Origin: Giardia intestinalis
Taxonomy: Eukaryota
Assembly: GCA_000002435.2 (NCBI GenBank)
Contig: CM018793.1
Strand: one strand, 5' to 3'
Length of the DNA stretch: 64,000 nucleotides
The first letter of the stretch is position 1. Each line of letters starts with the position of its first letter. A model generated the notes under the pieces. That model was not told where the DNA came from. It searched no databases and saw only the letters and a program-made list of their open reading frames with translations. Shown piece by piece: positions 5,874-55,056 of the stretch. The position numbers were made by a program, and so were the translations under genes.

Positions 5874-6494
5874 ATGGACGTAGTTCCGCCGAGACTCACG
5901 TACTACGACGCCCGGGGCACCGCGTTGAAGTGCCGGCTCCTGCTCGCAGACCTGGAGATACGGTACGAGTGGGCGCCCTTGGCGAGCGCCGAGCAGGTGG
6001 CCGCGGCGAAGGTGGGTGCACCATCGTGCACGCTCCCCGTGTGGGAAGACAGCGCGGCGCGGGTGGCCGGGGGCATGGTCATCCTGGAGTACCTGGGGGC
6101 GAGCCTGGGGCGGTACAGCACGTCATTGCAGGTGCAGGCTGCTGCGCGGGCCCTGGTGCTCTTCTGTGAGGATCTCCTTGCCGCCGCCTGGAAGGAGCCC
6201 GAAGCCGTGGCAGAGGCCCTTGCCGCTGGGGCAGAGATGACGCGCTCGGAGTGCATCGCGGCCTACCGACAGAACAGGATCCTTCCGGGGCTGACCGTCC
6301 TGACCCGGGACGTGCTGAACCTTCGGAGCCTGGCGTTCGAGCCGCTCGACTCGGACTACGCGGTCCTGGAGGTCCTGTATTATGCGGACGCAGAGTGTCC
6401 GGAGCTCGTGGACCAGTTTCCGCCGCTGCGCGAGCTATTTGATGGCTACCGCGCGCGCCCGGGGATCACGAAGCTCCTCGCCTCGCTGGTCTAG
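5874..6494 (+). CDS. Glutathione S-transferase-like protein (sigma/alpha-class-like fold), 206 aa
   Basis: The track ORF starts at a TTG (5826); the first ATG is 5874, preceded by 'agaagtaaaATG'. The N-terminus 'RLTYYDARGTALKCRLLLADLEIRYEW...TLPVWEDSAARVAGGMVILEYL' matches the GST N-terminal thioredoxin-like domain (compare 'KLTYFNMRGRAEIIRYIFAYLDIQYED...IPILEVDGLTLHQSLAIARYL'). The C-terminus 'FPPLRELFDGYRARPGITKLLAS' resembles the GST C-terminal helix. GC3 is extremely high. Confidence 0.55.
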   Translation: MDVVPPRLTYYDARGTALKCRLLLADLEIRYEWAPLASAEQVAAAKVGAPSCTLPVWEDSAARVAGGMVILEYLGASLGRYSTSLQVQAAARALVLFCEDLLAAAWKEPEAVAEALAAGAEMTRSECIAAYRQNRILPGLTVLTRDVLNLRSLAFEPLDSDYAVLEVLYYADAECPELVDQFPPLRELFDGYRARPGITKLLASLV

Positions 6495-6709
6495 AGGCCG
6501 CGTGGCCGGCACGGGGTAGGGCCATTTTCAAAAAGCTCCAACGCGTTCCGCTCCAACCAGCAGCCGTGGCTACACCGCGCCGGGCTTTCGATGCTCCACG
6601 CAGAGCGAGCACTATGTATGTTTACTCGAGACGTCAGGAGACCCTGCTTCGTGGCCACTCATTCCTGGACTTCTGCGCAAGGCTGCTGAGCAGATGTAAT
6701 AGGAGATGC

Positions 6710-6726
6710 GTTTACTACCTAAGTCA
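6710..6726 (-). promoter_or_regulatory. VSP stop codon plus conserved extended polyadenylation signal (TGACTTAGGTAGTAAAC; AGTAAAC poly(A) motif)
   Basis: The reverse complement of 6710..6726 reads 'TGACTTAGGTAGTAAAC' immediately after the CRGKA codons. It is near-identical to the element after the second VSP (55037..55056). Confidence 0.7.
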
Positions 6727-8967
6727 CGCCTTGCCCCGGCACACGAACCACCAGCAGAGGAAGCCGACGAGGCCTCCGACGACGACGATGACTGCGACGG
6801 AGATGCCCGCGATGGCGCCTGTGCTGAGGCCGCTCTTGTTGACGCTTCCGCCGGTGTTATCGCCGTCTGTTTTGATATAGCAGGTGACAGGGCCACCAGC
6901 GTTACCAGCTGGAGGAGCGCAGCTTACGCAATTAGCGACACCAGTGATTTGGTTGTTATTTCCACTACTAGCTGTACATTTGAAGCATTTATCACCGGCA
7001 CCTTTGTAGTATCCAGGAAGGCATTCAGTGCAGGCATTAGAATCATTGCATTTTGCACAGCCTTCAGAGCACTCCGGACACTTCTCTTGTACAGGTGCCC
7101 GGTTATTTGCAGCACACATAGTACACTTTCCATTATTAGCTGTCGTGCAGACAGCCTTCCCGGGCAGCTTCGCCACACCATAGCACCCGCCCGACATGAG
7201 AGTATACTCTCCTGCACATTTGGTGCACTTCCCGCCTGCCGCCGTACATACGCTCGCGTCTCTCCCAGTTTTCACTGCTGTACAGATCCCGTCGATCGGG
7301 GCGTACCCGTCCTTGCACTGAGCACAGTACTTCGCGCCCCCCACGTTAGCCGTGCACTGCCCGTCTGCACAGTTGGTAATGAACGCACCAGTGCACTCCT
7401 TGACGCATGTTCCGGCTGTGCCAGATCCATACAGGAGAGAGTACCCGGGATAGCAGGCCGTGCAGGAAGCAGCGTCCGCATTGCCGTTGCATTCTGCACA
7501 CGTAGCATGGCAGGAAGCACAGACACTGACTCCGTTAATATTATCGGCATATGTCCCTGCAGGACACTGTTCTAAACATGCATTGCCCGAAGGAGTAAGC
7601 CGCTTGTCTGTACACTCAGAGCACACAACTGTCGATTCTGTTTCTCCAGAGAGCGTTTTGAGGGCACACTTTTTGCAGCCTGTGATGCCGTGTGTCGCGT
7701 CGCTGCATGAGAGGCACATCTTCTTTGAGCCAGTAGAGTCCGCGACCTCCTTGGTGAAGTGCGTCGTATCAGATGTACAGGCAGAGGCCGATACGCACAC
7801 CCCTGAGTGGGCATCAGTATCCGTCACCTTCAGATAGTTGTCTCCGCTGCAGCTAAGGCACTTATCGTCTTCACTCGTATTAGCACCGCTGACGCAATCC
7901 TTGCAACTGGAGTGGCACCCCGGCGTGGCGGCGGGGCATTTCCCGTTCTCTGGTGGTGCGCCGGTACTGCATCTAGCGCAGACATCACTCTGATCACATC
8001 GTTCACAGTTAGAGTCGGGGCAAGCGAAGCACTGCGTACCTGCAGTATTAGGCTTTTGTCCTGCATCGCACTTCTTGCACTCCTTGGCGTTCGGATCGGT
8101 GGTGTCGTCGGCGTAGTAGCCTCCGTCCCTCGTGCAGTCCTCCTTGCTGACGCACGTCCCTGTTTGGTCGCCCGGATTCGTCTTCTTCAGGTAGGGCGTG
8201 GCGCCGCCTGCCTCGCACTTCGTACAAGCCGTCGCTAAACCGCTAGAACACGCCGCGCACGTAGCATCGCACTTCTTGCACTCCTTGGCGTTCGGATCGG
8301 TGGTGTCGTCGGCGTAGTAGCCTCCGTCCCTCGTGCAGTCCTCCTTGCTGACGCACGTCCCTGTTTGGTCGCCCGGATTCGTCTTCTTCAGGTAGGGCGT
8401 GGCGCCGCCTGCCTCGCACTTCGTACAAGCCGTCGCTAAACCGCTAGAACACGCCGCGCACGTAGCATCGCACTTCTTGCACTCCTTGGCGTTCGGATCG
8501 GTGGTGTCGTCGGCGTAGTAGCCTCCGTCCCTCGTGCAGTCCTCCTTGCTGACGCACGTCCCTGTTTGGTCGCCCGGATTCGTCTTCTTCAGGTAGGGCG
8601 TGGCGCCGCCTGCCTCGCACTTCGTACAAGCCGTCGCTAAACCGCTAGAACACGCCGCGCACGTAGCATCGCACTTCTTGCACTCCTTGGCGTTCGGATC
8701 GGTGGTGTCGTCGGCGTAGTAGCCTCCGTCCCTCGTGCAGTCCTCCTTGCTGACGCACGTCCCTGTTTGGTCGCCCGGATTCGTCTTCTTCAGGTAGGGC
8801 GTGTTGCCGTTTGCGTCGCATTTGGTGCATCCTTGTCCAGTTGAGTCACATTCAGCACAACCATCGATCGATGGACTGCATGCATCAGCCAATGCAACTG
8901 CAAAAATCAAACCAATTCCTACCAACATTGAGGCCAGAAGCTGACACAGCACCGCTCTGGTTTGCAT
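6724..8967 (-). CDS. Variant-specific surface protein (VSP), ~747 aa, with internal 67-aa tandem repeats
   Basis: Many CXXC motifs. The C-terminus 'GGLVGFLCWWFVCRGKA' is followed by TGA and the conserved 'ACTTAGGTAGTAAAC' element. The track ORF extends to 9090 without a credible ATG context; the chosen ATG at 8965-8967 begins a signal peptide 'MQTRAVLCQLLASMLVGIGLIFAVALADA'. An alternative ATG lies at 8994. Confidence 0.88.
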   Translation of the reverse strand: MQTRAVLCQLLASMLVGIGLIFAVALADACSPSIDGCAECDSTGQGCTKCDANGNTPYLKKTNPGDQTGTCVSKEDCTRDGGYYADDTTDPNAKECKKCDATCAACSSGLATACTKCEAGGATPYLKKTNPGDQTGTCVSKEDCTRDGGYYADDTTDPNAKECKKCDATCAACSSGLATACTKCEAGGATPYLKKTNPGDQTGTCVSKEDCTRDGGYYADDTTDPNAKECKKCDATCAACSSGLATACTKCEAGGATPYLKKTNPGDQTGTCVSKEDCTRDGGYYADDTTDPNAKECKKCDAGQKPNTAGTQCFACPDSNCERCDQSDVCARCSTGAPPENGKCPAATPGCHSSCKDCVSGANTSEDDKCLSCSGDNYLKVTDTDAHSGVCVSASACTSDTTHFTKEVADSTGSKKMCLSCSDATHGITGCKKCALKTLSGETESTVVCSECTDKRLTPSGNACLEQCPAGTYADNINGVSVCASCHATCAECNGNADAASCTACYPGYSLLYGSGTAGTCVKECTGAFITNCADGQCTANVGGAKYCAQCKDGYAPIDGICTAVKTGRDASVCTAAGGKCTKCAGEYTLMSGGCYGVAKLPGKAVCTTANNGKCTMCAANNRAPVQEKCPECSEGCAKCNDSNACTECLPGYYKGAGDKCFKCTASSGNNNQITGVANCVSCAPPAGNAGGPVTCYIKTDGDNTGGSVNKSGLSTGAIAGISVAVIVVVGGLVGFLCWWFVCRGKA
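8060..8815 (-). repeat. 201-bp perfect tandem repeat (~3.75 copies) inside the VSP coding sequence
   Basis: Identical 61-aa antisense ORFs at 8243..8428, 8444..8629 and 8645..8830 are offset by exactly 201 nt. The protein carries 4 copies of 'PYLKKTNPGDQTGTCVSKEDCTRDGGYYADDTTDPNAKECKKCDATCAACSSGLATACTKCEAGGAT'. Confidence 0.85.
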
Positions 8968-11759
8968 TAAGAGGCGCACGGAACCCTGCTTCATGTCACG
9001 GAATTCAGTGGAACACAGCGACCAACGGAAGCGAGATCGCATCCTCGAGCCGCACCGGAGACCCGTTGATGCAGCATCCGCCCCCAGCAAGCACGACTGA
9101 GGAAGCCCAGCGCTGGCTTTCCTTGCTGTGGGAAGGCATAAGTGTATACATAGATAATGAGTGCATCCATTGCTACATTAACCCAGCTGGCGCTTGTAGC
9201 CCTTGACACCCGTAGCCACCGTGTCCTGCACCTGACTACTGCCCGAGTGACCATCGTGGGGGACACAGCGATCGTAATGCTCGTGGAGCGGCACGGGGCC
9301 GGCTCTAGGATCACCCCGCCATCCAGGCAAATGCGTACCATGAAAGGCCTCTTGTTGCCACCGTCCGAGGCTCACAGGATTGCAGGGCTCAGGCAGCCTC
9401 TGTCCCATGAGTGAGACTGGCCTCGCCCGGCGCCTCCAGCACTCTGCCAATAGCTGGCAGACAAGCGTGCACAATGGACTTAGATGGAGTGGATAAGGGA
9501 CAGCAACGCAAGACGACCAAGTAGGCGTTGACAGTACAAACACTGCCAGCCCTCGGTCAGAGAGCAGGCGTCTGGGAAAGGTGAGGGTTGCTTGTTACTC
9601 TACACCTTAACGGCCAGGCTCAACAGTAGTCACTGTTTGAGAGCTCTATTTGAAGGCACTGTAAGTGGGGTTCTTTGCCCTCCTGGATGTTGATCCCAGG
9701 AACGTGTTGCCTGATTGTTTGTCTCTGCATCGGAGTCGTTGCTAACGGCCGTCCTGGTGCAGCAAGGGGCCCATACAAGAACCATGTGCCGGGCACTACT
9801 CAAGAACAGAACAGATATCGTTGCTACTCATAGGCTTAGACCGATTTTCCGAAGCGGCAGATGTTAAGGGCAAGGACGGGGCCTGTTTCCGAGTCCCTAA
9901 TTCGAGAGTTTGTGTGAGGACCACAGCACTCTGTTAGACCTTCCTGGAAGAGGACATCCACACATATCCTTGACTCCAATCCACGTCAAAGAACGCCCAG
10001 CGGCTGCCATAGCAGTTGGGCAATGCCATCACTCCTTGCTCAGAGCTACCCATCGTTGGTGATAAGCAGCTAGCGACAGGGAAAAGCTTCTTTAGACTTC
10101 TGATTGCGCCTCAACGTTTTCAAGCCCCCCTATCGTTTTGCTGAGCCCAGGCTTCGCTGGTCTGGTGTGCTTGTATCCGTTCCAAAGCATGCTTGAAGTG
10201 GCGGCCAAGTGCTAGGCTTCATGTAGCTACCTCAGGCCACAGTGCTCGTGCGCAATAAGCAGAGTCTCCGGTCCACTGGCCACTACTCTTGCTACTCGTA
10301 AGCCTGCTCAGTGAGTGGCTATGGCAGGATCCTCCGCAAATGCGTATCTTTTGATACTTATTTCCACATGCACAGAGAAAGGTGTAGTGTAACTAGTCAA
10401 GGCATCTGCTGCTCAGCGTCCTCGCCGTGAGGGTCTACTGCATACCCCTTCAGCAGATGCTGATTAATGTGCCAGATACAACTACATCCTCAGACTGTCA
10501 GCTGTGCACGTGGTAGCTTCAGGCCATCCTCTAGCACTGTTCCAATGCCGCAGAATCTGGATGGGACATCCCGACTACAAGCGCAGCGCAAGGCTAGCGC
10601 ATTATGTCCAGCACTCTCCTACACCGCAGTTGGCTCCAGCGGCTATTGCCCTGGACTTACGTTTGGAGATAGGATGATCTGTACCCATCAGTGTGGATGA
10701 GCCATTGTCAGCCATTGTAGAAACGCTCAGAGTCAACGTAGGCAACATATTGATAGGCCGTAATGGATTGCTGGGCAGTCGTGGTACCCGGCAGCGCACT
10801 TTATGGAGCTGTGGCAAGTGAATACGCTGACTTCCGATTCACCCATCTATTAGGGTCCAGACACTTCAAATGGATATGCGGTATATGCTAGCCACGGTTC
10901 AGACTGCCAGCTGCATGGATCCTGTGACTGGCCATTAGACATCTTTAATGTGGTTGTAACACAGTGAAGTGGTACTATATACGTTTGCTGGCGATCATCC
11001 GCTATGCACAAATGTACCCGTCGGAGGCCAGTGTATCGGTCACTTTCTGCTGCGAAGGGAATGCTTAGCCGCTAGCACAGCCGATTCTCTACACCCTACT
11101 GATGGCTGTTTTGCGTATATCAGGCTTGGTATCCGCAAGCAGAGTATCCAGTTAGCAACAGACCAGGGTTATGTTCATCGGAGCAGATGATCAAGCGCCA
11201 GAGCTGGATTGTCAAGTCCCAGAAGGTGCCACCTCTTCTGGAACGCCCCTACAAAAGCAAGAACCCGACAGCGGAGTTGTGAGGAACTCGAAGTAGAGCT
11301 AGGTGAGAGTCTTAAAAGTCCATAGTGGTGGGGCTGACCGAGGCTTATAGGAACTAGTGATGAGCAGGTTCACAAAGATAGCCACTTAAGTTCAAGGTCT
11401 TCTAACGTTTCAATCTTTTCTGCATCTGTTTATATATTAGTAAAGAGGGTAAGAAGGAGTGTGCTCACCACCTACAGTACTTGGCTAGCTATACCTCCTA
11501 GAATTAGTATTATAGTGAGGTCTAGTGGATCCTTTATCTGCACTATCACTGTAAAATGGAGTACATGTTTGAATTCATGAATCAAAATTTCTGATCCCTT
11601 GATCTAGTAGATGCACTTATTAGCTGCATATCAAGATAACCAAAGTCCGGTAGAGAGGACTATTATACTCACCGTTATAACCTTACTCAATTTCAAAATT
11701 TGGCAGGACTCCTTAATTTCCTTGTTGACACAAAGCCCATAAACTCAATTAAAGAGAAT

Positions 11760-14607: not shown

Positions 14608-17600
14608 ATGGATGATCTGTTTGATTTTCAAAACGGCTTCTCCTTTGGGAGCCTCGATGGCTTGGGTGGTTCTGCAGGCAACGGTGGAGACGAGAAGAAT
14701 GGAGATAAAGCTCCAGATTCCATTGATGAGTATAATTTAGACAATTTTAACATCGACAACTTTTTGGAAGATACTCCAGGTTCAGTACCTGCTAAGGAAG
14801 AGGCTCAGAAGAAATCACAGCCGGTGATAAAAGCACAGGAAAAAGACCCATTTGCTGGGGCTAGCGATCTGTTTGATTTTGGGTCGGACGAAAAACCAGC
14901 CTCAACACAGAAGGACACCCAGCAGACAGCCTCTTTCGGGGCAGGAAAAGAAGATGATATCGTGTGGGGAGATTTTTATCAAGAAGATAGTCCTCGTAAA
15001 TCCCCCGGTATCACGCAAGTAGAGCCAAGAAAGGATTCTCCTGTCAAAAACGGGACAGGGAAGGTAACTGTTTCTAATTCTGCACACTTACCTTCCACTG
15101 CTGAGCAGCATAATGGTACATCTATTGATAAATTCGATGACGATTTTGGAGACGACTTTGGAAATGATTTTGAACCGAATGCTCTAACTGTGCCAGAAGC
15201 CAATCATTTATCGACTGACGTCTCTGAGCCGCGTGCTATAACTCCCAATCCAGAGCCAGAGCAGCTGAGTTCTTCTATGCATAGTCCCCCAAAGGAAACA
15301 TTAAAGCAACTTCCACAAGCACACACTGATGCAGTGACAGATGCGTGGCCTAAAACTGTAAGGAGTACTGGGAGCGTCATTGGAAAGGTCACAGGTTCTC
15401 AGTTCGTTAAGGCGCGGCAGCCCTCTCTTCCCTTCTATGAGGACACTTCTGATGAGGCTGTCCCGGTAAAGAACCCCGAAAATCCATTTACAGTTGCACA
15501 AAAGCCAATCTATTACTCTCCGCCTAAATCAGAGCTAACGACGACTACAGACGAGACCAGTGCATTGACAACAGATGCATCTAGCCATATACAAGCACCG
15601 GCAACAACTCACGTTACTGCCATTCCAGCGTCTAAGCAAGCCCCTTTACCTCCTCGATCCAGAAGTACGTCTCCAACTCACTCCGACACCTTAAAGCGAC
15701 TTCAAGACCAAATGAACGTTATCCTGCACGAGCTTAAGGGTCTCACTGTTGGCCCGGATATGACCCAGCTCACATCTGCTCTGACTTCTGAAATTATAAA
15801 GCATCTACCGAAGGAGACACAACAGGGACATTCCAACAGTTTGCAGGCATCGGATATTCAATCACTGATTCAAAATGCACTTGATCAGACCAAAGAATCT
15901 GCATCAAGCCTTGTAGACCCGACTCCAGCACTTCACGGAATAGAACATAACATGCGCCGTTTGGAGGAGTCCATCGCAACTAAGCTTCAAAGCAAGTTTG
16001 CAGATGATTCTTGTAAGGAGGGTAAGATACTTGATACAATTAAACGATTGGAGCTTCAAATGAGTGGGATACAATCAGAAGTTTCCTCATTGGCTGTTAA
16101 GGCACAGCATTATAAGCAGGTGCACGTGAATGATCCGAATGTCCTGGCCCTAAATGCAGCAATCAACCTCGCCGAGGAGCGTGCGAAGCGCGCAGAAGAT
16201 AGGTACAATGAGTCTATTCAAAAAGTCAGCGACCTTACAGCAGAAGCCAAAAGAGCTATGGAAGAAGCAGAAAGGGCAAAGATAGAAGCCAACACTGCGT
16301 TAACATCAGCTAACCTTAGGGAGGCGAAAGCGAGAGATCTTGAAGAGGAGCTGAATAGACTTATGGAATCACTACACACCAGGGAGCGCAATATTATTGC
16401 CAGAGAGAGTGAGCTCAGAAAGAAGGAGGCCAATCTTCGTGAGCGTAATATTCAGCTGGAGACAGAGATGCTCAAGTTAACTACTCAGAAAGCAGAGCTG
16501 GAGGAACTTAAGGCAAAAGCAGATGCGTCCCGTCAGCTATCTATTTTAGAAAGGAACCAGTTGATTAAAGAGCAGGAAGAGCTTATTAATAACAACATAC
16601 TTCCAAATCCGGCACCAGTCCCCTTATACACAGACCTTCCATATAGACAATACCCCTCTGTTACCACATCACCTCATAATGGTGGCAATGCCTTATCCAT
16701 GTCTGCAATCGCAGCAGAGCCTCAAAAGCGTAGTAAAAGTGCAGCAAGAGAGGACCTTGAACGTGCAGTCAGCAAAGCCGATAAGGCGCTTAAGACTTCT
16801 CGCATACTGAGCACCTCTCAGATGCTTGGAAATCAAAAAGCAGAACCTTTTCTTGTTGATACAACTGCACATTCCTCGTTAGCTGCCTTAGAATACGATC
16901 TTCGCTCCACAGACCCCAAGCGAGAGGCGTTGCGTGTGGCCCGGAAATTTTTACAGGAAAAGGCACTAGCCAAGAGCATGACAGATACCCGGCCACCGAA
17001 GCCTCAGCCTCTGGTTGATACAGCTTCTTTGGCACAGAGCCTGAGCCTTAACAGTAGCAACGGAGCTATGAACTTAACAGCAATGCCTACTCGACCACAC
17101 GCACCTCCCTATGTCATTTCTTCTGGCTCAGAGAAGAGCAACTCTATGGCCAGCTCGCTTCCAAGCAGCCGTACATCATATGTCGAACCCCCCATATTTT
17201 CTGCAGCCACTGCGACTGCATCAATGAGTCAATACCCCTCACAGTTCTCGACACAGCGACCTTCGCTTCCATATTCTAGCAGGCCAACATCCCGGACAAG
17301 CGATAACATAGTGGCGCAAATCGCTGCAATTAATCGACCGTTTACACCAATTACGTTCGATCAATCGCAGTACACACCGGCAGAGGTTATCCGAAAAGCA
17401 TCTTTGGCTACCGTTACCCCAATAGTAGAGGCTCAGAATAGCTTTGCCACACGAACCACAAGCAAGCCCAGTAGCTTTGATATTTCTTCAGGGAGTGCTC
17501 CACTTGGGCCCTTGACATCAGAAACGTCTAAGTCTACCGACATTCCCGTTATGACGGCAGTTTCACAACTTATTCATCGCCAACCCTCAGCTCAACCCCC

Positions 17601-18342
17601 TTCTAACTCTACGTCAACTGAGATTGCTGTTCTCTACGATCAGTCATCTGTTCCAATAGCCACAACTAAAGGAGAAAATCTGGATGTACGGGAGTCCGCA
17701 TCTATTGTCACAGCAGTTCAAAACTTGCCGTCTGCCTCCACCAGCGCAGTAGATCCAGAAGCGTCTAGCTCTCGTAGTGGTAATGAGACAAGCACTCATT
17801 TTGGAACACAGCAGCAAAAGCAGCCTGATCACGCAATGGGCTCAACTGCTGTTCAGCTCCAGCCGCCAACTCAAGACTTGGCCACAGAACCGTCTATGAG
17901 TGCGTCCGCTCCAATCCCCTACCCGACAAATCGAGAAAACCCAATGCTTGCCGTTCAGTCTTCGAAGAGCGACCCGTCAACCTCGGGAAGCATATCTGCA
18001 GTGACGACATACAAGAAACAATCAGCAGGAGAGCAGGAAGTTGGCCACCCAGAGCTGAATTTCAGTTATCCCTACCAAGCACAGGTGGAGCCATATGCAT
18101 TTCTGCCTCAGGTATCTGCATCTCAACCAGGGCTTCTAGATGCGCTGTCAGAATCAAATCAAAACCGCTATTCAACCTCCAGGTTTACTGCCCAGAACGA
18201 GTTCTATGAGTTCAGTCCCCAGATAAGTACCAGTGACTTGGGCTATCCAGCACATAATCCCTTTGCAGACATTAAATATGACCTCGGCCTGTCAAACTTC
18301 AACAGCAACGAGCATTCTACAAGCCCAATGTTTCCATTCTAG
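14608..18342 (+). CDS. Large hypothetical protein, 1244 aa: acidic N-terminus with DPF/DxF/WxxF motifs, central coiled coil, long S/T/P-rich disordered C-terminus ending with an NPF motif
   Basis: ATG in 'aagtaaaatATG'. Motifs: 'DDLFDF', 'KDPFAGASDLFDFGSD', 'WGDFYQED', 'DDDFGDDFGNDFEPN', C-terminal 'HNPFADIKYD'. The coiled-coil segment runs about 16.1-16.6 kb ('LEEELNRLMESLHTRERNIIARESELRKKEANLRERNIQLETEMLKL'). Confidence 0.8.
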   Translation: MDDLFDFQNGFSFGSLDGLGGSAGNGGDEKNGDKAPDSIDEYNLDNFNIDNFLEDTPGSVPAKEEAQKKSQPVIKAQEKDPFAGASDLFDFGSDEKPASTQKDTQQTASFGAGKEDDIVWGDFYQEDSPRKSPGITQVEPRKDSPVKNGTGKVTVSNSAHLPSTAEQHNGTSIDKFDDDFGDDFGNDFEPNALTVPEANHLSTDVSEPRAITPNPEPEQLSSSMHSPPKETLKQLPQAHTDAVTDAWPKTVRSTGSVIGKVTGSQFVKARQPSLPFYEDTSDEAVPVKNPENPFTVAQKPIYYSPPKSELTTTTDETSALTTDASSHIQAPATTHVTAIPASKQAPLPPRSRSTSPTHSDTLKRLQDQMNVILHELKGLTVGPDMTQLTSALTSEIIKHLPKETQQGHSNSLQASDIQSLIQNALDQTKESASSLVDPTPALHGIEHNMRRLEESIATKLQSKFADDSCKEGKILDTIKRLELQMSGIQSEVSSLAVKAQHYKQVHVNDPNVLALNAAINLAEERAKRAEDRYNESIQKVSDLTAEAKRAMEEAERAKIEANTALTSANLREAKARDLEEELNRLMESLHTRERNIIARESELRKKEANLRERNIQLETEMLKLTTQKAELEELKAKADASRQLSILERNQLIKEQEELINNNILPNPAPVPLYTDLPYRQYPSVTTSPHNGGNALSMSAIAAEPQKRSKSAAREDLERAVSKADKALKTSRILSTSQMLGNQKAEPFLVDTTAHSSLAALEYDLRSTDPKREALRVARKFLQEKALAKSMTDTRPPKPQPLVDTASLAQSLSLNSSNGAMNLTAMPTRPHAPPYVISSGSEKSNSMASSLPSSRTSYVEPPIFSAATATASMSQYPSQFSTQRPSLPYSSRPTSRTSDNIVAQIAAINRPFTPITFDQSQYTPAEVIRKASLATVTPIVEAQNSFATRTTSKPSSFDISSGSAPLGPLTSETSKSTDIPVMTAVSQLIHRQPSAQPPSNSTSTEIAVLYDQSSVPIATTKGENLDVRESASIVTAVQNLPSASTSAVDPEASSSRSGNETSTHFGTQQQKQPDHAMGSTAVQLQPPTQDLATEPSMSASAPIPYPTNRENPMLAVQSSKSDPSTSGSISAVTTYKKQSAGEQEVGHPELNFSYPYQAQVEPYAFLPQVSASQPGLLDALSESNQNRYSTSRFTAQNEFYEFSPQISTSDLGYPAHNPFADIKYDLGLSNFNSNEHSTSPMFPF

Positions 18343-20052: not shown

Positions 20053-21447
20053 ATGCAAGGACGTTGCGCTGCATCTGCTCACAAATCTAGCTCTAGTAGG
20101 GCAAAAACCACGGAGCCTACTGCACTCATGTATGCTGTCAGAGAGGGCCGCATTGACACCGTTCGTTTTCTAGCAGAAAAGGAGAGCGGGTATCTTGATG
20201 AGAAAGGAGACACTGCACTCATTATAGCCGCTTGTTCAGGGAACTATGATGCTGTTTCCATCTTAGCACCATTGGAGGCAGGAATCCGTGGCTCGGGTAG
20301 ACAGACAGCCCTCATGCATCTGTCGTCTCTGGGGTGCCCTCCCCATTTGCTTAAGCTACTTATTCATGTAGAAGCAGGTCTTACAGATAACATGGGATGG
20401 ACAGCGCTTATGTTTGCTGCACTATGGGGCCACGTGGAAACGATTTCATGCCTAGCTGATCTTGAAGCCGGCATGCAGGACCAAGATGGGATGACGGCTC
20501 TTATGCACGCAACCTCGAAGAGGAGACATGCTGCTGTCGAATATCTGCTAACACACTGCAAGGAAAAGGAGGTGGGCCGACAGAATAGCTTGGGGAGAAC
20601 TGCACTCATGATTGCCGCTACACTGGAAGGTCCAGAAAGCTACACAATTGTACAAGCGTTAGCTCCACAGGAAGCAAGAATGAAAGATCAAAATGGGATG
20701 ACTGCATTGATGTTGGCAATAAGGTGCAACATCGAGAGTAACACTGAGATCTTAGTGTATCTTGCTCAGTTAGAGGCCGGAATCCAAGACAAGGACGGGA
20801 TGACTGCGCTTATGCACGCTTGCTTGCGTGGAAATGGCACAGCTCTTGAGGTGTTAGCAAGGAGTGAGATAGGAATCTTGGATAGGCGTGGGTACTGTGC
20901 TCTAAACTACTGCATAGAAAATTACAAGGTCACGTTCTACCCCTATCTCGTCTCAGAACTAGATGTAATCTCCAGGCTTAACCCCTACAAACAGCTATTC
21001 AGCAGAAGGACGCTGTTGATTGACCTTGTCTTTCTTAGCTCACACTACAAGATTGCAAACCTGATAAAACGTTGGCTACATGTCATTGTCGTAAAGCTTA
21101 GTGATGTGGTCCATTTCGATACGACCGTTGAGCCTGCTATACTGGACTTCTCCATCTATGCGTTGATCGAGCTCTTGCTCAACTATTACATAGATAGCGC
21201 ACCCATTACCATTAACGACCTTTTGCGTAGCTATGATGAGCTGTTAGATACCGTCCTAGAGGCACACTTACACACCGTATGTAGCGTTTGCCTAGATTGT
21301 TTTGCGTCAGTCATCCATCTTCCATGCCGGCACATGGCCATGTGCAGCAAGTGCCACGAGCAAAATGAACAGTTGAGAGGCAAATGTGTAATTTGCAAGT
21401 CGATTGTTAAAGATTCTATTGTTCTCTCTCTGCATAGATGTGAATAA
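20053..21447 (+). CDS. Ankyrin-repeat protein with C-terminal C3HC4 RING finger (candidate E3 ubiquitin ligase), 464 aa
   Basis: Repeated 'G(W/M)TALM.A...G' ANK units across about 20.1-20.9 kb. The C-terminus 'CSVCLDCFASVIHLPCRHMAMCSKCHEQNEQLRGKCVICKSIV' gives the C-C-C-H-C-C-C-C RING-HC spacing. Confidence 0.8.
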   Translation: MQGRCAASAHKSSSSRAKTTEPTALMYAVREGRIDTVRFLAEKESGYLDEKGDTALIIAACSGNYDAVSILAPLEAGIRGSGRQTALMHLSSLGCPPHLLKLLIHVEAGLTDNMGWTALMFAALWGHVETISCLADLEAGMQDQDGMTALMHATSKRRHAAVEYLLTHCKEKEVGRQNSLGRTALMIAATLEGPESYTIVQALAPQEARMKDQNGMTALMLAIRCNIESNTEILVYLAQLEAGIQDKDGMTALMHACLRGNGTALEVLARSEIGILDRRGYCALNYCIENYKVTFYPYLVSELDVISRLNPYKQLFSRRTLLIDLVFLSSHYKIANLIKRWLHVIVVKLSDVVHFDTTVEPAILDFSIYALIELLLNYYIDSAPITINDLLRSYDELLDTVLEAHLHTVCSVCLDCFASVIHLPCRHMAMCSKCHEQNEQLRGKCVICKSIVKDSIVLSLHRCE

Positions 21448-21514: not shown

Positions 21515-23983
21515 ATGTTTCCTCTGTTGCCACGCTATGTGCGGGGATCACAGAACGTCACACAGGGTATATCCATGCTCTATGTGCTTAAAGACTCCAA
21601 GAAAAAGAGTGCCATGGGATCCGTGTCTACTGTGCAACTGACTCCATCCAAGCGCGGAAAGAATATGATTGCCGTCTCCACTGTCAATGACAAAGAGTGG
21701 CACGGTAGACTTAACGAGTTCAACTATTACACCTACAATACATACCTCAAGTCCGAGGTGGATGCTCAGATTGCAGGGGTTGTCACTGAGACTTGTAGGT
21801 ACGGCCTCCCTTTTACTTTCTTCACTCCCTTGATAGTCTGCAACAATGAGATCTCCAATCTGATTGTGCCATACGAACAATATTTCAAAGACCTTATATC
21901 AGAGGTAAAGTCTGTGACCTTCACAGCTCTTGGGCTTAAGAACGGAGGCATTGTAGATATAGGTAAGCACATTACCGACAAAAATCCATCAAAGCAACCA
22001 GTCCCCGTGTCCCTAACGTTCAATTTGGCCGGAGAGATCGATTTTTCTCCCAAGCTGTATCTAACGGAATTTAGGGAATTGCACAAGACTCGTAGCAAGT
22101 GCACCTCTTACACGGAGAGGATGTCTGCCCTCAAAAACTATATCATAAAGACTGACGATCTTACTTGTGTTATTCTGACTTACACGAGCTGGGTTGACAA
22201 CGCATCGCATATCTACCCAGAGGGGCGCTGCGAGATGGTTCATACCTTTGTTGTCCCCATATTTAGGGACGAAGATAAGTTTTGGAAAGAAAATTTCCGA
22301 ACGACTTATAATCCATACGATCTTGACTCTGTGCAAAAGAAGTTTGATTTGGAGTCTCCCGCTATAGCGGAGAAAGTTTTCATGGCGCAGTATGTCCACT
22401 CGGGGAAAGGATACTTCAATGACGACTCTCAAAGGTTTATGCCCAAAACGTCTGGCAAGGAGAAGCCAGCGAAGGTTCCCAAAGCCACTCCAAGAAGCTC
22501 AGCTCAACCTTCTGACGGTCATGGTGAGTATTCCAAGCTCACAGCCTTCCAAGCCGACTACAATTCTCTTCTTTACGCCCCTGAAAATGTTCTGACCAGC
22601 GACCACTTTAAGCCGAGCACTGCTGCAGAGTATGTGCTGTTCTCGACTCCATGCGCATCAGTGAAGGTCCTTTACAAGTATCTCTACCTTCGTGAAGCCC
22701 TCACAGCCGCTATTATGATACTTCCAGAACGCTTTCAATGCTCCCCAGGTACCGTTTTGGCAGCCATTTCCTTTGTGGGACATGTGCAGTACACCAAATG
22801 CCTCAATCATCGTGGGTACAACACTATGGACTTGGTCGGTGGGCAACGTGCTATGTTTATGGCCCACCATTTGAAGGTCGACCCTAACTTCTTGTTCACT
22901 GCTGACAACTCTTCGCGTGCAGAGACCTTTGAGCTTGTTACAGAAAGTGGTGGATCCCTCGTAGTCAAGTTGGAGCGTTTCGATAACTGTACTCTTGTCG
23001 ATGAAACAGAGGACATCCCTGTTTTTGAGGGAGATGGCACGTTCGTTGAAGATCAAGACGATGATGATAAGGATAGCGTGACTATTGAAGACTCGATAAA
23101 GTCTAAGCCACCTGCTAAACCGGTGGTGTATGCGACTGCGGCACCCACCAGTACTGGCTCGAATAATGACCTCATAGTAGCAGATCTGCAAGCACAACTT
23201 GATGCAAAAGACAAGCTTATAACTGTTAGCGCAGAGAACATGAAGGCGGTAGAGTTGGAGAACAAGCGTCTCTGTGAAGAAATAGCCGATTTGCAGAAGA
23301 AGCTTGGAATCCCTCAAACGTATGAAGGCCGCGACCACGCGGATAATACATTTAGCGAAATGAATCCTGCATCTTTGTCACAGATTACATCGGGTCTAGG
23401 AACACAACGTGACGAGCTGCTGAACGACATTGATAAGGAAATCCAGGATCTCATCACCATGTCCAGGCGTAGAGACAATGAGATCACGGCGCTATCTGCT
23501 CAGGTGGAGCACGGAGGAGACACAGACTCCTTGGTCAAAGAGTACTTGGATCGCAATAAGGCACTCGAAGAAAAGCTCATCTCTACTGAGCAGGAGCTCG
23601 GAAACCAGAAGAAGTCATTAGAGACGGAGCGCGAGGCTAACAAGAAGCTGCAGCGACTTCTTGATGACCTCAAGGCTGGAGACGATAAGGGTAAAGGAGG
23701 TGGGAAGTCTGTAGATGAAGCTGCACTTCAGAAGCTCCGCATTCAATACGAAAACCAGATGGTTAACCTTAAGAAGGAGAACCTTGAAAAGGTTCAAGCT
23801 CTCCACGTAGAGATACAAAGACTACGCAGCACCCACGAGGCTAAGATGCACGAAGCCAAGAAGCACTATGAGGAGGAGCGCAACAAGGAGCTGCGATCTC
23901 TTAAGCGTCGCGCCGAGGAGGACTTCATGGCCAAGCTTACTGAGATCAAACTAAAGATCAAGGAAGCTTTTGCTCGACATTAG
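21515..23983 (+). CDS. Hypothetical coiled-coil protein, 822 aa (paralog A of a tandem pair)
   Basis: ATG in 'caaaattaaaaATG'. Globular N-terminal domain (~450 aa), an acidic linker, and a C-terminal coiled coil ending '...LTEIKLKIKEAFARH'. It shares blocks with the downstream gene ('PIFRDEDKFWKENF' vs 'PIFRSGDSFWEENL'; 'EIKLK(I/V)KEA'). Confidence 0.8.
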   Translation: MFPLLPRYVRGSQNVTQGISMLYVLKDSKKKSAMGSVSTVQLTPSKRGKNMIAVSTVNDKEWHGRLNEFNYYTYNTYLKSEVDAQIAGVVTETCRYGLPFTFFTPLIVCNNEISNLIVPYEQYFKDLISEVKSVTFTALGLKNGGIVDIGKHITDKNPSKQPVPVSLTFNLAGEIDFSPKLYLTEFRELHKTRSKCTSYTERMSALKNYIIKTDDLTCVILTYTSWVDNASHIYPEGRCEMVHTFVVPIFRDEDKFWKENFRTTYNPYDLDSVQKKFDLESPAIAEKVFMAQYVHSGKGYFNDDSQRFMPKTSGKEKPAKVPKATPRSSAQPSDGHGEYSKLTAFQADYNSLLYAPENVLTSDHFKPSTAAEYVLFSTPCASVKVLYKYLYLREALTAAIMILPERFQCSPGTVLAAISFVGHVQYTKCLNHRGYNTMDLVGGQRAMFMAHHLKVDPNFLFTADNSSRAETFELVTESGGSLVVKLERFDNCTLVDETEDIPVFEGDGTFVEDQDDDDKDSVTIEDSIKSKPPAKPVVYATAAPTSTGSNNDLIVADLQAQLDAKDKLITVSAENMKAVELENKRLCEEIADLQKKLGIPQTYEGRDHADNTFSEMNPASLSQITSGLGTQRDELLNDIDKEIQDLITMSRRRDNEITALSAQVEHGGDTDSLVKEYLDRNKALEEKLISTEQELGNQKKSLETEREANKKLQRLLDDLKAGDDKGKGGGKSVDEAALQKLRIQYENQMVNLKKENLEKVQALHVEIQRLRSTHEAKMHEAKKHYEEERNKELRSLKRRAEEDFMAKLTEIKLKIKEAFARH

Positions 23984-24085: not shown

Positions 24086-26527
24086 ATGAGCCAGCACACG
24101 GCACGGGCCTTTTCGGCCACCCTCGCCAGTGACCATGAAGGTATGCCTGGCGTGTCCCTCTTCATGACATATTCAGTTGATAAGTCCACTTTACCGCCAT
24201 CGATACTAGATAACATCACCGTCCACTCTGACGAAAACAAGGAAACGGAGCTTATTGCCAACTCCACCCGTCTCGCATTTACGCCCACGCTAGGACAATG
24301 GCACGGCTCGGAACGGGAACTGAGTACAGCTGCAGAGCTATATTTCACAGAGATAATCCGCACTGTTGTTGCCGGGGTTACGCCCTTAACTATTGTCGTC
24401 CCCCTTCTATTTGAAAAGGGTGTAATGGTTAGTTCTTACAATCCTATTTGCAGCCTGCCTCAAGTGTTAAAGGTGACAGAAGCCACCGAGTTCGCATTTT
24501 CAGCTGTTTGCTTTATGAGCGGTAAGGCATATGACATGCATGATACTATCTCTACTACCTCTATGGCAACACCTACAGAGTTAAGCGTTTCAGTTGGGCT
24601 CACAGGAGAGGTGGTTTACAATCCTGCTCCTAGAAAGATTAGTGCAGCTGTCAAAGATTGTGCATCTGGCACCAATGACTTTCTAACTGAATACTCAAAG
24701 ATGATGACCTATCTCTTAAGCTACGTGTCACATAACTCTAGCATTTCCGCGATTGCAATCCACGTTCATTTGGACGGACTACCACACATCCTGGTCAAAA
24801 GCGTACCATGTAGAATGAATATTTCGTTTATATCCCCTATTTTTAGGTCTGGAGACTCCTTCTGGGAAGAAAATCTATCTACAGACTTTCCTGCCGATGA
24901 TATTGAAAGAGCATCGAAGCGTTACGACCTCGGAAGCATGAGTGTACTAGACAACCTTGCGTTGGCATGCTATGTTAACTATGGACGCTTGTTTTTTAGC
25001 TCTAAATCAGCTCCTGACACTCTTCCAACCTGCGCATATCAGCAATACGCAGCGTGGACGCTTTCACGGATCCCATCTCTGGACTTCCATAGGGACCAAG
25101 GTTGTAGCACCTCTGAATCCACTAATACACAGCTCATTACTAGGACTGACCATTCTAATGCAGGTGGTCTTGTCGACCCATGCTCAGATGTGCTAAAAAT
25201 ATGGCAGAATGCAGGCAACAGTGCAGGAAAGTCGAGAGATTATAGCTACAATTCTACCAGATGGAGGCAGATAGATAAGGAGTTCGTCTTGAAGTCTTTT
25301 TCCCTACAGGATTACATTTCAACAAAAACACTATCTGCGCTTGCGAAAGTGCTACACGAGCATCTCTTTCTTCGAACCTCTCGTGTCCTTGCGTGGGTTG
25401 CTCTGCCATCCGAATTCCTCTTTACCAAGGCCTCTGCCATTGCTATGTTTAGTTTTGTTGCTGGAATCCAGCGAGGATACTGTGTCCAGAGGCCTACGTA
25501 TTTAACTCGTGAGGCAGAGCTAGCTGATAGAATTCGCTACGTCCTAAACGAACTGCACACCCTTGAAACCATGACAAGGAAGAGCAATCCACTAAATCAG
25601 AACTCCGAATCAGACTTTGAATCATGTCCGAGCCGCGCAGTTCTCTACTCAAATATTCCCAATCCAGAGGTCCGTAAATTGCTCGAGCAAAAAGATAACC
25701 TTATCGATAAACTAGAAGATTGTATCAAAGCGTTGGAAAGCGACAATGCTCAGCTTCGGCAGGATATTTTGGCGTCCAATAACAACAAGGATCAACCATC
25801 CTCGTTCTTTGACTCAATTTTTGTTGAAGATAGCTCCATGTTGGCTCACGAAAAGAACGATCTCGTGAATGATATAGACACAGAGCTAAAGAATCTCATG
25901 GAGCAGCATCTGCTCAACAAGCAGCAACTGAACGACCTCCAGAAGTTGGCAGCAGGAGAAGGATCAGCTCAGCTACTAGAGAAACTTCAAGGAGAGGTAA
26001 ACGCAGCAAACGCCAAGATAAAGCTTCTAGAGACAGAACTACGTAATTCTCAGACAGCACTATACGCCGAGCAGGACTCGTGCTCTCGCCTTAAAAGAGA
26101 GACGGAAGACTTGGTGGCCCAACTAGAGCGCGCCGGACGCCTAGCGCTTGTTACCTCGCCGACAAAAAGCACTAGAGTAGGGTCACAGTTACCACCAGTA
26201 CTTCCACAGATCATTGTACCCTCAGCCGCAAACTACACAGAGGATGACGTCCGGAGTATAAGACAAGAGTATGAAAACAAAATCTACGGTCTTAAAGAGC
26301 AACGCCTTATGGATATGGCTGCTCACAGAGCTGAGGTGGATGCTCTCAAGAAAGCGCATGCTGATCAGCTTGAGTCCTTCAGACAAGCCGTGAAGAACAG
26401 ATATGCAAAAGAAAGGGACAGAGAATATGCCAAGATGAAGAAGCAGCTAGAGAGCGACTATATGCTGAAGCTTAAAGAAATAAAGCTGAAGGTCAAAGAG
26501 GCGATGCTTGGAGGTGTGAACATGTGA
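24086..26527 (+). CDS. Hypothetical coiled-coil protein, 813 aa (paralog B of the tandem pair)
   Basis: ATG in 'cacaaaaaagATG'. Same architecture and conserved blocks as 21515..23983. C-terminal coiled coil '...KLKEIKLKVKEAMLGGVNM'. Confidence 0.8.
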   Translation: MSQHTARAFSATLASDHEGMPGVSLFMTYSVDKSTLPPSILDNITVHSDENKETELIANSTRLAFTPTLGQWHGSERELSTAAELYFTEIIRTVVAGVTPLTIVVPLLFEKGVMVSSYNPICSLPQVLKVTEATEFAFSAVCFMSGKAYDMHDTISTTSMATPTELSVSVGLTGEVVYNPAPRKISAAVKDCASGTNDFLTEYSKMMTYLLSYVSHNSSISAIAIHVHLDGLPHILVKSVPCRMNISFISPIFRSGDSFWEENLSTDFPADDIERASKRYDLGSMSVLDNLALACYVNYGRLFFSSKSAPDTLPTCAYQQYAAWTLSRIPSLDFHRDQGCSTSESTNTQLITRTDHSNAGGLVDPCSDVLKIWQNAGNSAGKSRDYSYNSTRWRQIDKEFVLKSFSLQDYISTKTLSALAKVLHEHLFLRTSRVLAWVALPSEFLFTKASAIAMFSFVAGIQRGYCVQRPTYLTREAELADRIRYVLNELHTLETMTRKSNPLNQNSESDFESCPSRAVLYSNIPNPEVRKLLEQKDNLIDKLEDCIKALESDNAQLRQDILASNNNKDQPSSFFDSIFVEDSSMLAHEKNDLVNDIDTELKNLMEQHLLNKQQLNDLQKLAAGEGSAQLLEKLQGEVNAANAKIKLLETELRNSQTALYAEQDSCSRLKRETEDLVAQLERAGRLALVTSPTKSTRVGSQLPPVLPQIIVPSAANYTEDDVRSIRQEYENKIYGLKEQRLMDMAAHRAEVDALKKAHADQLESFRQAVKNRYAKERDREYAKMKKQLESDYMLKLKEIKLKVKEAMLGGVNM

Positions 26528-55036: not shown

Positions 55037-55056
55037 GTTTACTACCTAAGTATCTA
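55037..55056 (-). promoter_or_regulatory. VSP stop codon plus conserved extended polyadenylation signal (TAGATACTTAGGTAGTAAAC)
   Basis: Reverse complement of 55037..55056. The block 'gatgcgtttactacctaagt' is shared with the 3' end of the first VSP (6704..6724). Confidence 0.7.

Follow-up and report, generated by a model that had tools for sequence, protein, structure and literature searches.

A Giardia-specific coiled-coil protein with conserved acidic-aromatic motifs as a candidate scaffold for adaptor appendages

An open reading frame at 14608..18342 (+) of the window, a stretch of 64,000 nucleotides from Giardia intestinalis, encodes a candidate cytosolic scaffold confined to the genus Giardia. 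The product would probably dimerize or oligomerize through a coiled coil of some 300 residues at its center, and a few conserved short linear motifs of acidic-aromatic character lie in its two long disordered arms: DLFDF, DxF, DPF, WGDF and FxDxF in the N-terminal arm, NPFxD and a final FPF-COOH at the end of the C-terminal arm. We infer that these motifs would serve as multivalent low-affinity ligands for platforms of the appendage or ear type within the parasite's adaptor machinery, most likely the alpha/beta appendages of AP2 and the GlNECAP1 PHear domain. The probability of this reading, a genus-specific coiled-coil scaffold whose disordered arms would dock on Giardia adaptor appendages or ears, is put at about 0.4; the binding partners, compartment and uptake role proposed here for the protein are plausible but putative.

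Results and discussion

The open reading frame and its family

The ORF is complete and intact, with an ATG start and 1244 codons followed by a stop. Its product was identified by identity match as Giardia duodenalis XP_001709451.1 (A8B6E1), and it is 99-100% identical to assemblage A proteins. An AT-rich initiator lies immediately 5' of the ORF, and an AGTGAT element 11 nt 3' of the stop resembles the Giardia poly(A) signal, whose consensus we take to be AGTRAAY.

No Pfam family was matched at E ≤ 0.1 across the full 1244 aa, and no catalytic or membrane domain was found. XP_001709451.1 matched no NCBIfam domain, and sequence comparison with the PDB gave nothing beyond coiled-coil noise. A signal peptide and TM segments are absent, the maximum 19-residue Kyte-Doolittle hydropathy being 0.74. 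Only Giardia orthologues were returned when 5.8 billion proteins were searched with a word index and 1.84 billion representatives were scanned exhaustively with HMMER; judged by these searches, the family is restricted to the genus. The original prediction had suggested a lineage-specific protein lacking folded domains, and both points hold: homologues come from Giardia only, and the sequence around the coiled coil is largely predicted disorder with no Pfam match.

Orthologues from the G. muris clade are syntenic and about 32% identical. They keep the acidic Phe/Gly N-terminus, one FxDxF (FDDDF), the coiled coil, the C-terminal [N/D]PFA[D/E] and FPF, while DPF80, Trp120 of WGDF and NPF292 are lineage-specific and are not kept in G. 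muris.

Motifs and their excess over chance

The first 200 residues are strongly acidic (41 D+E vs 17 K+R) and contain all the clustered motifs that had been quoted for this region: DLFDF twice (aa 3-7 and 87-91), DPF at aa 80-82, WGDF at aa 120-123, and DKFDDDFGDDFGNDF at aa 174-188, within which two FxDxF matches start at 176 and 180 (FDDDF and FGDDF). An NPF at aa 1217-1219 lies 25 residues before the C-terminus, and a second one, absent from the original prediction, is at aa 292-294.

Motif excess was measured against composition-matched residue shuffles of aa 1-200, the comparison that the original prediction had named as its own refuting test, and the prediction came through it. DxF occurs 8 times vs 2.09 expected, a fourfold density (P = 6e-4); FxDxF occurs twice vs 0.14 (P = 0.007) and DFG three times vs 0.20 (P = 8e-4). 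Neither the single DPF (P = 0.14) nor the single WxxF (P = 0.08) is significant alone in the same shuffles. For the whole protein, shuffles gave an expectation of 0.14 NPF vs the two observed (P = 0.01). Some of the surplus of DxF goes back to short internal duplications (DNF-NI-DNF, DDFG-DDFG-NDF and the repeated DLFDF). Elsewhere in the window, 20 ORFs are 200 aa or longer (16,270 aa in all), and any 200-aa stretch of these holds two DxF at most. The G. muris protein offers an independent repeat: its aa 1-130 contain 5 DxF vs 1.4 expected (P = 0.005) and 5 FG vs 1.1 (P = 6e-4), and FG in the G. duodenalis N-terminal arm likewise numbers 5 vs 1.6 in shuffles. The strongest statistical signal common to both clades is DFG or FG in an acidic context, not DPF. 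The canonical clathrin box LPhixPhi[DE] and the W-box had zero matches in all six orthologues, where only DLF-type near-matches to the clathrin box were seen (DLFDF-Q/G).

Conservation of the N-terminal islands

Among four orthologues of the G. duodenalis complex, 88% of motif positions in aa 1-300 are invariant vs 42% of other positions (Fisher P = 3.6e-7), motif positions being defined solely by the regexes DxF, FxDxF, DP[FW], WxxF and NPF. Only 2 of 299 circular shifts matched this invariance. By residue type, Phe is 89% invariant in aa 1-340 and Ala, Thr and Val 17-23%. Of the 24 motif classes in a panel, just two stayed position-aligned in disordered sequence across the deeper split that separates the G. 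muris clade from the G. duodenalis complex: FxDxF and the C-terminal NPF. These patterns of sequence conservation support the view that the acidic/aromatic motifs of the N-terminus act as functional short linear motifs.

The conserved positions fall into islands, all on the + strand. The first, MDDLFDFQNGFSFGS (14608..14652), carries DLF and DxF at the extreme N-terminus and has MDDFGDFDFGGFG as its G. muris counterpart. Island 2, DEYNLDNFNIDNFL (14725..14766), has two DxF; it does not vary within the G. duodenalis complex and cannot be aligned in G. muris. Island 3, EKDPFAGASDLFDFG (14839..14883), with DPF and the second DLFDF, is missing from G. muris-clade orthologues. At 14947..14985, island 4 (KEDDIVWGDFYQE) can be read as WxxF or as psi-G-D-psi; in G. 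muris it is KGEDIDLSDFFKD, with Trp lost and D-I and D-F kept. Island 5, SIDKFDDDFGDDFGNDF (15121..15171), combines two overlapping FxDxF with three DFG, of which FDDDFG is kept in the G. muris clade. A further island in the disordered linker, GKVTGSQFVKARQPSLPFYEDTS (15382..15450), has no assigned motif type, and the first NPF, as ENPF (15478..15489), is conserved solely within the G. duodenalis complex.

Coiled coil and tail

In the AlphaFold2 model, pLDDT lies below 50 in aa 1-357 and over most of aa 664-1244; these stretches are predicted to be disordered apart from short helices. Between them, aa 358-663 (15679..16596, +) are modeled as helices, including one unbroken 154-residue helix at aa 510-663 with pLDDT 80-95, and hydrophobic residues occupy 0.55 of heptad a/d positions vs 0.36 overall. 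The model and the heptad pattern agree with the coiled coil originally placed after the N-terminal region, and the helical rod is presumed to be a coiled-coil oligomerization rod. The two best-conserved parts of the protein in the G. duodenalis complex are aa 437-665 (84% invariant) and the C-terminal end (85%).

Two or three short conserved helices follow at aa 710-790 (16735..16977, +; AlphaFold2 and alignment), where RSKSAARE(D/E)LERA stays invariant as far as G. muris. The tail, aa 801-1244 (17008..18339, +), is predicted to be disordered and is 37% S+T+P. An S/T/P-rich tail was therefore correctly called in the original prediction, which erred in having it end with NPF. Within the tail, the islands SDN..Q..AINR.FTP..FD.S.YTP, SMSASAP and PS.SGSISAV are deeply conserved, as is the C-terminal end, FYEFS.Q ... 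[N/D]PFA[D/E] ... FPF-COOH (18202..18339, +). G. muris keeps the C-terminal NPF (nt 18256-18264), which is DPF in the related lineage P0028.

Candidate receptors in Giardia

Giardia takes up nutrients via peripheral vacuoles (PVs) with static clathrin/AP2 assemblies, whose core interactome comprises GlAP2 alpha/beta and GlCHC. AP2 and DRP are reported to be the only conserved factors of clathrin-mediated endocytosis identified in Giardia, and of the 30-50 accessory proteins of other eukaryotes almost none has turned up at its PVs. GlNECAP1, which has a NECAP/DUF1681 fold with a PHear-type domain, is located at PVs and co-purifies with AP2, CHC and DRP. The mammalian alpha-ear platform is bound by DPF/W and FxDxF, and the sandwich subdomain by WxxF; FxDxF is also a ligand of the mammalian NECAP PHear domain. 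The tagging primers of published studies encode LNDLLSL as the C-terminus of Giardia alpha-adaptin and LKFSILK as that of beta-adaptin; these resemble the ends of the mammalian appendage platforms, which we take to be LCELLSEQF and YDSILKN. The resemblance is a hint that appendages may be present on the Giardia AP2 adaptins.

Two proteins validated at the clathrin assemblies begin much as the A8B6E1 orthologues do: Gl4259 (GlACLC) with MDDFFGF and Gl7723 (GlPXD1) with MEEFFGFSD, resembling MDDLFDF and MDDFGDF. The N-terminal half of Gl4259, which includes MDDFFGF, neither localizes to clathrin assemblies nor binds GlCHC when expressed alone, and therefore the shared N-terminal motif is not sufficient as a clathrin ligand.

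Published datasets were searched for the protein. A8B6E1 is missing among the 32 analyzed hits of nine cross-linked co-IPs (GlCHC, AP2 alpha and beta, DRP, Gl4259, PXD and FYVE baits), a table of selected candidates only. The protein's name, sought in text tables rather than raw MS data, was absent from the supplementary tables of the interactome study on PXD1-6, FYVE and NECAP1, from the PV/ER organelle proteome (1.8 Mb of tables) and from the UPS study. No tagging primer of those PV/clathrin studies maps to the A8B6E1 gene, and we found no localization or binding data for the protein in the literature, nor, in the literature searched, a Giardia EH-domain receptor for NPF. The endocytic reading in the original prediction is thus borne out in part: the scaffold logic of appendage ligands and the presence of AP2 and NECAP1 in Giardia favor it, and the absence from co-IP and PV tables and the lack of an EH receptor in that literature count against it. 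Also on the negative side, DPF and WxxF occur just once each, a clathrin box is missing, and acidic Phe-rich peptides occur in unrelated systems too.

Alternative explanations

We consider it somewhat unlikely that A8B6E1 is a coiled-coil structural or regulatory protein outside vesicle coats (cytoskeleton, disc, median body or flagella), whose islands bind another, possibly Giardia-specific partner and match endocytic motifs by coincidence. Regexes of 3-5 residues are weakly specific, with the single DPF and WxxF not individually significant; the coiled coil and the tail islands AINRxFTPxxFDxSxYTP, SMSASAP and PSTSGSISAV are best conserved, and the tail islands match no endocytic motif. Giardia also encodes many lineage-specific coiled-coil cytoskeletal proteins, and A8B6E1 is missing from every PV-centered dataset searched. 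However, the classes that kept their position in disordered sequence across the deep split were coat-ligand classes only, and DxF, FxDxF, WxxF, DPF and NPF in disordered regions around a coiled coil form an arrangement classic for accessory proteins. A cytoskeletal domain or motif was not seen: SxIP matches are not conserved, and there is no Pfam match.

The same scaffold logic could instead serve another coat, the protein being an accessory of AP-1 (gamma-ear-type) or of some other coat with a role in ER-to-PV or secretory traffic rather than AP-2 endocytosis; this we regard as unlikely. Motif type does not separate AP-2 from AP-1 or from an unrelated partner, and WGDF and FGDF also fit the AP-1 gamma-ear type. 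The gamma-ear/GAE consensus is psi-G-[PDE]-[psi/L/M] with preceding acidic residues, and it is fitted by WGDF (aa 120) in G. duodenalis and by FGDF and DFGGF at the G. muris N-terminus; DDDFGDD fits an ELM-style GAE regex. WGDF of NECAP is reportedly an AP-1-specific WxxF variant. The strength of acidic DFG/FG over DPF in both clades points the same way, and a non-AP2 partner would suit the absence from AP2/clathrin co-IP tables. Against this, the psi-G-D-psi matches (WGDF120 and, in G. muris, FGDF4) lie at non-aligned positions in the two clades, whereas the two deeply conserved motifs, FxDxF and NPF, belong to the AP-2/NECAP and EH-type classes.

It is very unlikely that the protein is an FG-nucleoporin similar to Nup62/Nsp1, in which FG repeats at the N-terminus accompany a coiled coil. 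FG is enriched at the N-terminus in both clades and a coiled coil comes next, but FG domains are poor in acidic residues and contain tens of repeats, and here there are just 5-6 FG, all in strongly acidic context, one of them (aa 110-111) not conserved. Neither Nsp1_C nor any other nucleoporin Pfam family matched at E ≤ 0.1, and the PDB comparison gave coiled-coil noise only.

The chance that A8B6E1 is a glucoamylase (GH15) precursor is negligible: the inherited NCBI and UniProt name, 'Glucoamylase S1/S2 (precursor)', is the sole support, and it is met by an acidic N-terminus without a hydrophobic segment, some 75% of residues predicted disordered, and no Glyco_hydro_15 or other glycoside-hydrolase match in Pfam, NCBIfam or the PDB. 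The lack of a Pfam domain, a TM segment and a signal peptide makes the name spurious, and at the level of sequence it is refuted; it probably arose from S/T-rich low-complexity similarity to the N-terminal region of yeast STA1/STA2.

Comparison with known accessory proteins

As an adaptor-docking scaffold, A8B6E1 is most readily compared with Eps15 and Ede1. In these too, a central coiled coil lies between long stretches of disorder whose DPF and FxDxF motifs bind adaptors multivalently. NPF/EH-type logic belongs to the same protein network, and by analogy the role would be to cluster AP2 and accessory factors. Unlike Eps15, Ede1 and Pan1, A8B6E1 has no EH domains (Pfam EF-hand_4) or other folded domain, and there is no sequence homology; the order is reversed, with the motifs N-terminal and NPF on the protein itself, and Eps15 has about 15 DPF vs one here. 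The tails of AP180/CALM, epsin and amphiphysin show the same mix of DLL/DLF-like, DPF, FxDxF, WxxF and NPF motifs in acidic, otherwise fast-evolving disorder, but A8B6E1 lacks an ANTH, ENTH or BAR domain and a canonical clathrin box. Since it has no membrane-binding domain, partners would be needed for membrane recruitment.

Of the AP-2 alpha-appendage ligand types, DPF80, FxDxF at 176/180 and WGDF120 lie in disorder (aa 1-357), and only FxDxF is kept to G. muris. The FxDxF of A8B6E1, kept as FDDDF in G. muris, is also the NECAP PHear ligand type, and by analogy with mammals it may bind the NECAP homologue GlNECAP1. GlACLC is likewise confined to the genus, with no homologues detected elsewhere, and the extreme N-termini of GlACLC and GlPXD1 resemble that of A8B6E1. 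They differ in that experiments localized both to the clathrin assemblies of PVs and both co-purify with GlCHC and AP2, whereas A8B6E1 is a candidate from sequence; it is also about four times the size of GlACLC (283 aa). A bolder version seems distinctly unlikely: that A8B6E1 is the missing Eps15-like organizer of static clathrin/AP2 assemblies, a genus-specific coiled-coil dimer with arms tying AP2 appendages to GlNECAP1, and that its extreme N-terminal peptide M-[DE]-[DE]-Phi-F-[GD]-F, in common with GlACLC and GlPXD1, is an unrecognized Giardia-specific coat-docking motif.

Trypanosomes reportedly have lineage-specific clathrin-associated proteins (TbCAPs). They provide a parasite precedent in which pan-eukaryotic endocytic accessory factors were replaced by orphan, often disordered or coiled-coil proteins. 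The TbCAPs have no sequence relation to A8B6E1 and were discovered by clathrin proteomics, whereas A8B6E1 is a sequence-based candidate.

Implications

A misleading enzyme annotation, carried through all Giardia genomes, is corrected by this analysis, which also supplies experimentalists with a short list of conserved peptides for mutation. If the scaffold reading is true, the peptide-motif 'language' of the adaptor hub would have survived in Giardia though the proteins speaking it were replaced, and the protein would offer a parasite-specific handle on endocytosis.

Gene identity and annotation

The feature coincides exactly with an open reading frame at 14608-18342 (+), with an ATG start and 1244 codons, in a chromosome segment of Giardia duodenalis (assemblage A) where VSP genes and Protein 21.1-type ankyrin genes occur along with tightly packed intron-less ORFs. 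An AT-rich initiator lies directly upstream, and an AGTGAT element just past the stop resembles AGTRAAY, the Giardia poly(A) signal consensus. At 99-100% identity, the product matches G. duodenalis ESU39805.1 and XP_001709451.1/A8B6E1, records named either "Hypothetical protein" or "Glucoamylase S1/S2". The latter name is unsupported since the protein has no domain match, signal peptide or hydrophobic segment: Pfam returned no family at E<=0.1, neither of the other two features was found, and PDB and NCBIfam profile searches gave coiled-coil noise only (isy-1, E=0.028; Rad50-like, E≈0.02). A genuine glucoamylase was rejected on these grounds and is extremely improbable; the label was probably derived from low-complexity S/T-rich similarity. 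Literature searches using 'Glucoamylase S1' with Giardia, or XP_001709451, A8B6E1, KAE8304981 or DHA2_151357, returned nothing relevant, and no publication characterising the protein was found.

Neighbouring genes

GC content is 0.55-0.61 at 1-10000 and 54000-58000 versus 0.41-0.48 elsewhere in the window, and VSP genes lie inside these regions at 6724-9090 (-; Pfam VSP, E=4e-67) and 55054-56826 (-; E=1e-115). Such a contrast is usual for Giardia surface-antigen genes. Five large ORFs without a Pfam family at E<=0.001 are uncharacterised and probably lineage-specific Giardia proteins: 21515-23983 (+, 822 aa), 24086-26527 (+, 813 aa), 26550-29474 (-, 974 aa), 29478-39026 (-, 3182 aa) and 39116-45910 (+, 2264 aa). 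Other assignments are a protein combining ankyrin repeats with a C3HC4 RING finger at its C-terminus (20053-21447, +), a short-chain dehydrogenase (45935-46891, +), a homologue of the RNA polymerase III repressor Maf1 (58778-59542, -) and an ABC-transporter-family ORF of 2071 aa (46909-53124, -). Two ABC-family proteins, GL50803_16575 and 92223, have been described as AP2 interactors localised to the peripheral vacuole (PV); primers for these two had no match within the window.

Motif content

Every motif quoted in the original prediction of a lineage-specific endocytic or PV adaptor was found by motif scan: DLFDF at aa 3-7 and 87-91, DPF at aa 80, WGDF at aa 120, DKFDDDFGDDFGNDF at aa 174-188, which holds two FxDxF, and NPF at aa 1217. 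The NPF had been taken to end the tail but lies 25 residues short of the C-terminus, and a second NPF, at aa 292, had been overlooked. Motif counts were compared with those obtained by permuting residues inside aa 1-200, the refuting test named beforehand. An excess was found for DxF (8 observed, 2.09 expected, P=6e-4), FxDxF (2 against 0.14, P=0.007) and DFG (3 against 0.20, P=8e-4), but not for the single DPF (expected 0.15, P=0.14) or the single WxxF (expected 0.08, P=0.08). All 20 other ORFs of at least 200 aa in the window (16,270 aa) have at most two DxF per 200-residue stretch. Short internal duplications (DNF-NI-DNF, DDFG repeats, DLFDF twice) account for part of the excess, and motif arrays usually expand in this way. 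The motif observation is confirmed and statistically robust.

Within a panel of 24 motif classes, matches to FFAT, PP1 RVxF, EB1 SxIP, 14-3-3, PTAP/YPxL/PPxY, LIR and B56 LxxIxE were missing or unconserved, and these readings were rejected. An Arp2/3 acidic-Trp reading was dropped because Giardia is not known to have Arp2/3.

Conservation of the motifs

Four orthologue clusters of the G. duodenalis complex are 74-99% identical to the protein, and conservation of the N-terminal 300 residues is strikingly island-like. The conserved islands, numbered 1 to 5, are MDDLFDFQNGFSFGS, DEYNLDNFNIDNFL, EKDPFAG.SDLFDFG, DI.WGDFYQE and SIDKF.DDFGDDFGNDF. They are approximately 91% invariant versus 32% for the linkers, a comparison made partly circular by choosing the islands by eye, and it was therefore repeated with motif positions set solely by regular expressions on the reference sequence. 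Positions defined in this manner are 88% invariant versus 42% elsewhere (Fisher P=3.6e-7), and the observed value was reached by just 2 of 299 positions when the motif mask was shifted circularly. Over aa 1-340, invariance is 89% for Phe and 17-23% for Ala, Thr and Val. Judged from the alignment, this pattern is the one that functional short linear motifs leave in disordered sequence. A 137-aa Logan sequence (P0029) is the same as the protein over aa 1-79 and diverges afterwards; a frameshift from an assembly or read error, rather than an isoform, is its likeliest explanation.

An exhaustive HMMER search across 1.84 billion protein representatives, with a profile built on the contiguous aa 1-1170 alignment, recovered only one further member, P0028 (E=5e-59), and a frameshifted fragment. 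The P0028 gene is flanked by an ankyrin gene and a DEAD-box helicase gene, an arrangement also seen in the window, and its product is 85% identical to G. muris P0030, likewise named "Glucoamylase S1/S2". A search with a six-sequence profile found no relative beyond Giardia. At approximately 32% identity, this muris clade retains the acidic Phe/Gly-rich N-terminus (MDDFGDFDFGGFGDDDGFG), GFDDDFG (an FxDxF), the coiled coil, RSKSAAREELERA, several tail islands and the C-terminal FYEFS.Q...[N/D]PFA[D/E]...FPF-COOH. The island 4 core D-I...DF[FY] is also retained, with Leu-Ser replacing Trp-Gly, while DPF80, islands 2 and 3 and NPF292 are missing. The C-terminal triplet (18256-18264) is NPF in G. 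muris and G. duodenalis and DPF in P0028 (Logan SRR30592944). DxF and FG/DFG are in excess in G. muris aa 1-130 too. From the 24-class panel, only FxDxF and the C-terminal NPF hold aligned positions in disordered sequence across this deep split.

The conserved C-terminal NPF sits in an NPFxD-like context (NPFAD/NPFAE). A conserved aromatic motif, FPF-COOH, ends all six orthologues, and we know of no receptor for it. The tail islands SDN..Q..AINR.FTP..FD.S.YTP, SMSASAP and PS.SGSISAV, at 17296-17400 (aa ~897-931) and 17890-18010 (aa ~1095-1134) on the + strand, are unchanged from G. duodenalis to G. muris. They match none of the tested motif classes and may be phosphorylation or docking sites.

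Predicted structure

AlphaFold2 models were built for aa 1-1170, using four orthologues, and for aa 880-1244, using six. Residues 1-357 have pLDDT <50, and their sole secondary structure is two 3-residue helical turns. A helical block with heptad-type hydrophobic periodicity spans aa 358-663 and closes with an unbroken helix (aa 510-663, pLDDT 80-95). Short helices occur within aa 710-790, and the remainder is predicted to be disordered except for two short helices at approximately aa 896-908 and 924-936. Mean pLDDT was approximately 40 in both models, too low for a fold search to be informative.

Candidate receptors

AP2 alpha and beta are hubs of the clathrin assemblies at Giardia PVs, and conserved accessory factors known from this site are very few. 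PVs are also where the Giardia NECAP1 homologue is found; this protein has a PHear-type fold, and AP2, CHC and DRP co-purify with it. In mammals, the alpha-ear platform binds DPF/W and FxDxF and the sandwich subdomain binds WxxF; FxDxF is also bound by the NECAP PHear. Since Giardia has both AP2 and NECAP1, these are plausible receptors for FxDxF, the most conserved N-terminal motif. The sequences LNDLLSL and LKFSILK resemble the ends of mammalian appendage domains. They are the C-termini of Giardia alpha-adaptin and beta-adaptin, respectively, as encoded by primers in the clathrin study, which suggests that Giardia adaptins carry appendage domains.

Primers from the same study for two validated assembly proteins encode the N-termini MDDFFGF (Gl4259/GlACLC) and MEEFFGFSD (Gl7723/GlPXD1), and MDDLFDF and MDDFGDF of this family are close to them. 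MDDLFDF is the extreme N-terminus here (14608-14628, +), and its counterpart in G. muris P0030 (aa 1-19) is MDDFGDFDFGGFG. An acidic-Phe docking peptide specific to Giardia may be common to the N-termini of these proteins. On its own, the N-terminal half of Gl4259 showed no clathrin-assembly localisation and no binding to the clathrin heavy chain GlCHC, so the peptide, if a ligand, would be weak or aimed at another target.

Weighing the interpretations

Motif grammar and evolutionary behaviour partly support an adaptor-appendage ligand scaffold, and to that extent the endocytic interpretation stands. Against it, the motif scan found no canonical clathrin box, and nine cross-linked co-IPs, both large AP2 subunits included, do not have the protein among their analysed hits. 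Searches by protein name in text tables, as distinct from raw spectra, did not find it in supplements to the PXD/FYVE/NECAP1 interactome, the PV/ER organelle proteome or the UPS study; across the supplementary tables of six Giardia studies, the sole match by name was human MGAM. These negatives carry moderate but not decisive weight against a stable association with AP2/clathrin. None of the published tagging primers maps to the window, so the gene was never tagged in those studies. The papers examined say nothing explicit on EH-domain proteins or adaptin ear domains in Giardia and yielded no EH-domain protein that could receive NPF.

Our best reading, a PV-associated AP2/NECAP1-type accessory scaffold, is held tentatively, at a probability of about 0.4; both the PV compartment and the binding partners are what we infer. 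The co-IP result sits more easily with an unrelated coiled-coil scaffold, its acidic-aromatic islands binding some other partner, and the retained FxDxF less so; this alternative is somewhat unlikely. WGDF/FGDF fit both motif classes, AP-1 gamma-ear and AP-2, and the same scaffold logic serving AP-1 or another coat is a distinctly less probable reading. A nucleoporin-like protein is very improbable.

The sequence follows the logic of Eps15 and of the AP180 tail, but has no folded domains and is restricted to the genus. If the accessory-scaffold reading is true, the protein would be a newly found endocytic scaffold of a known sort, non-homologous to the known ones.
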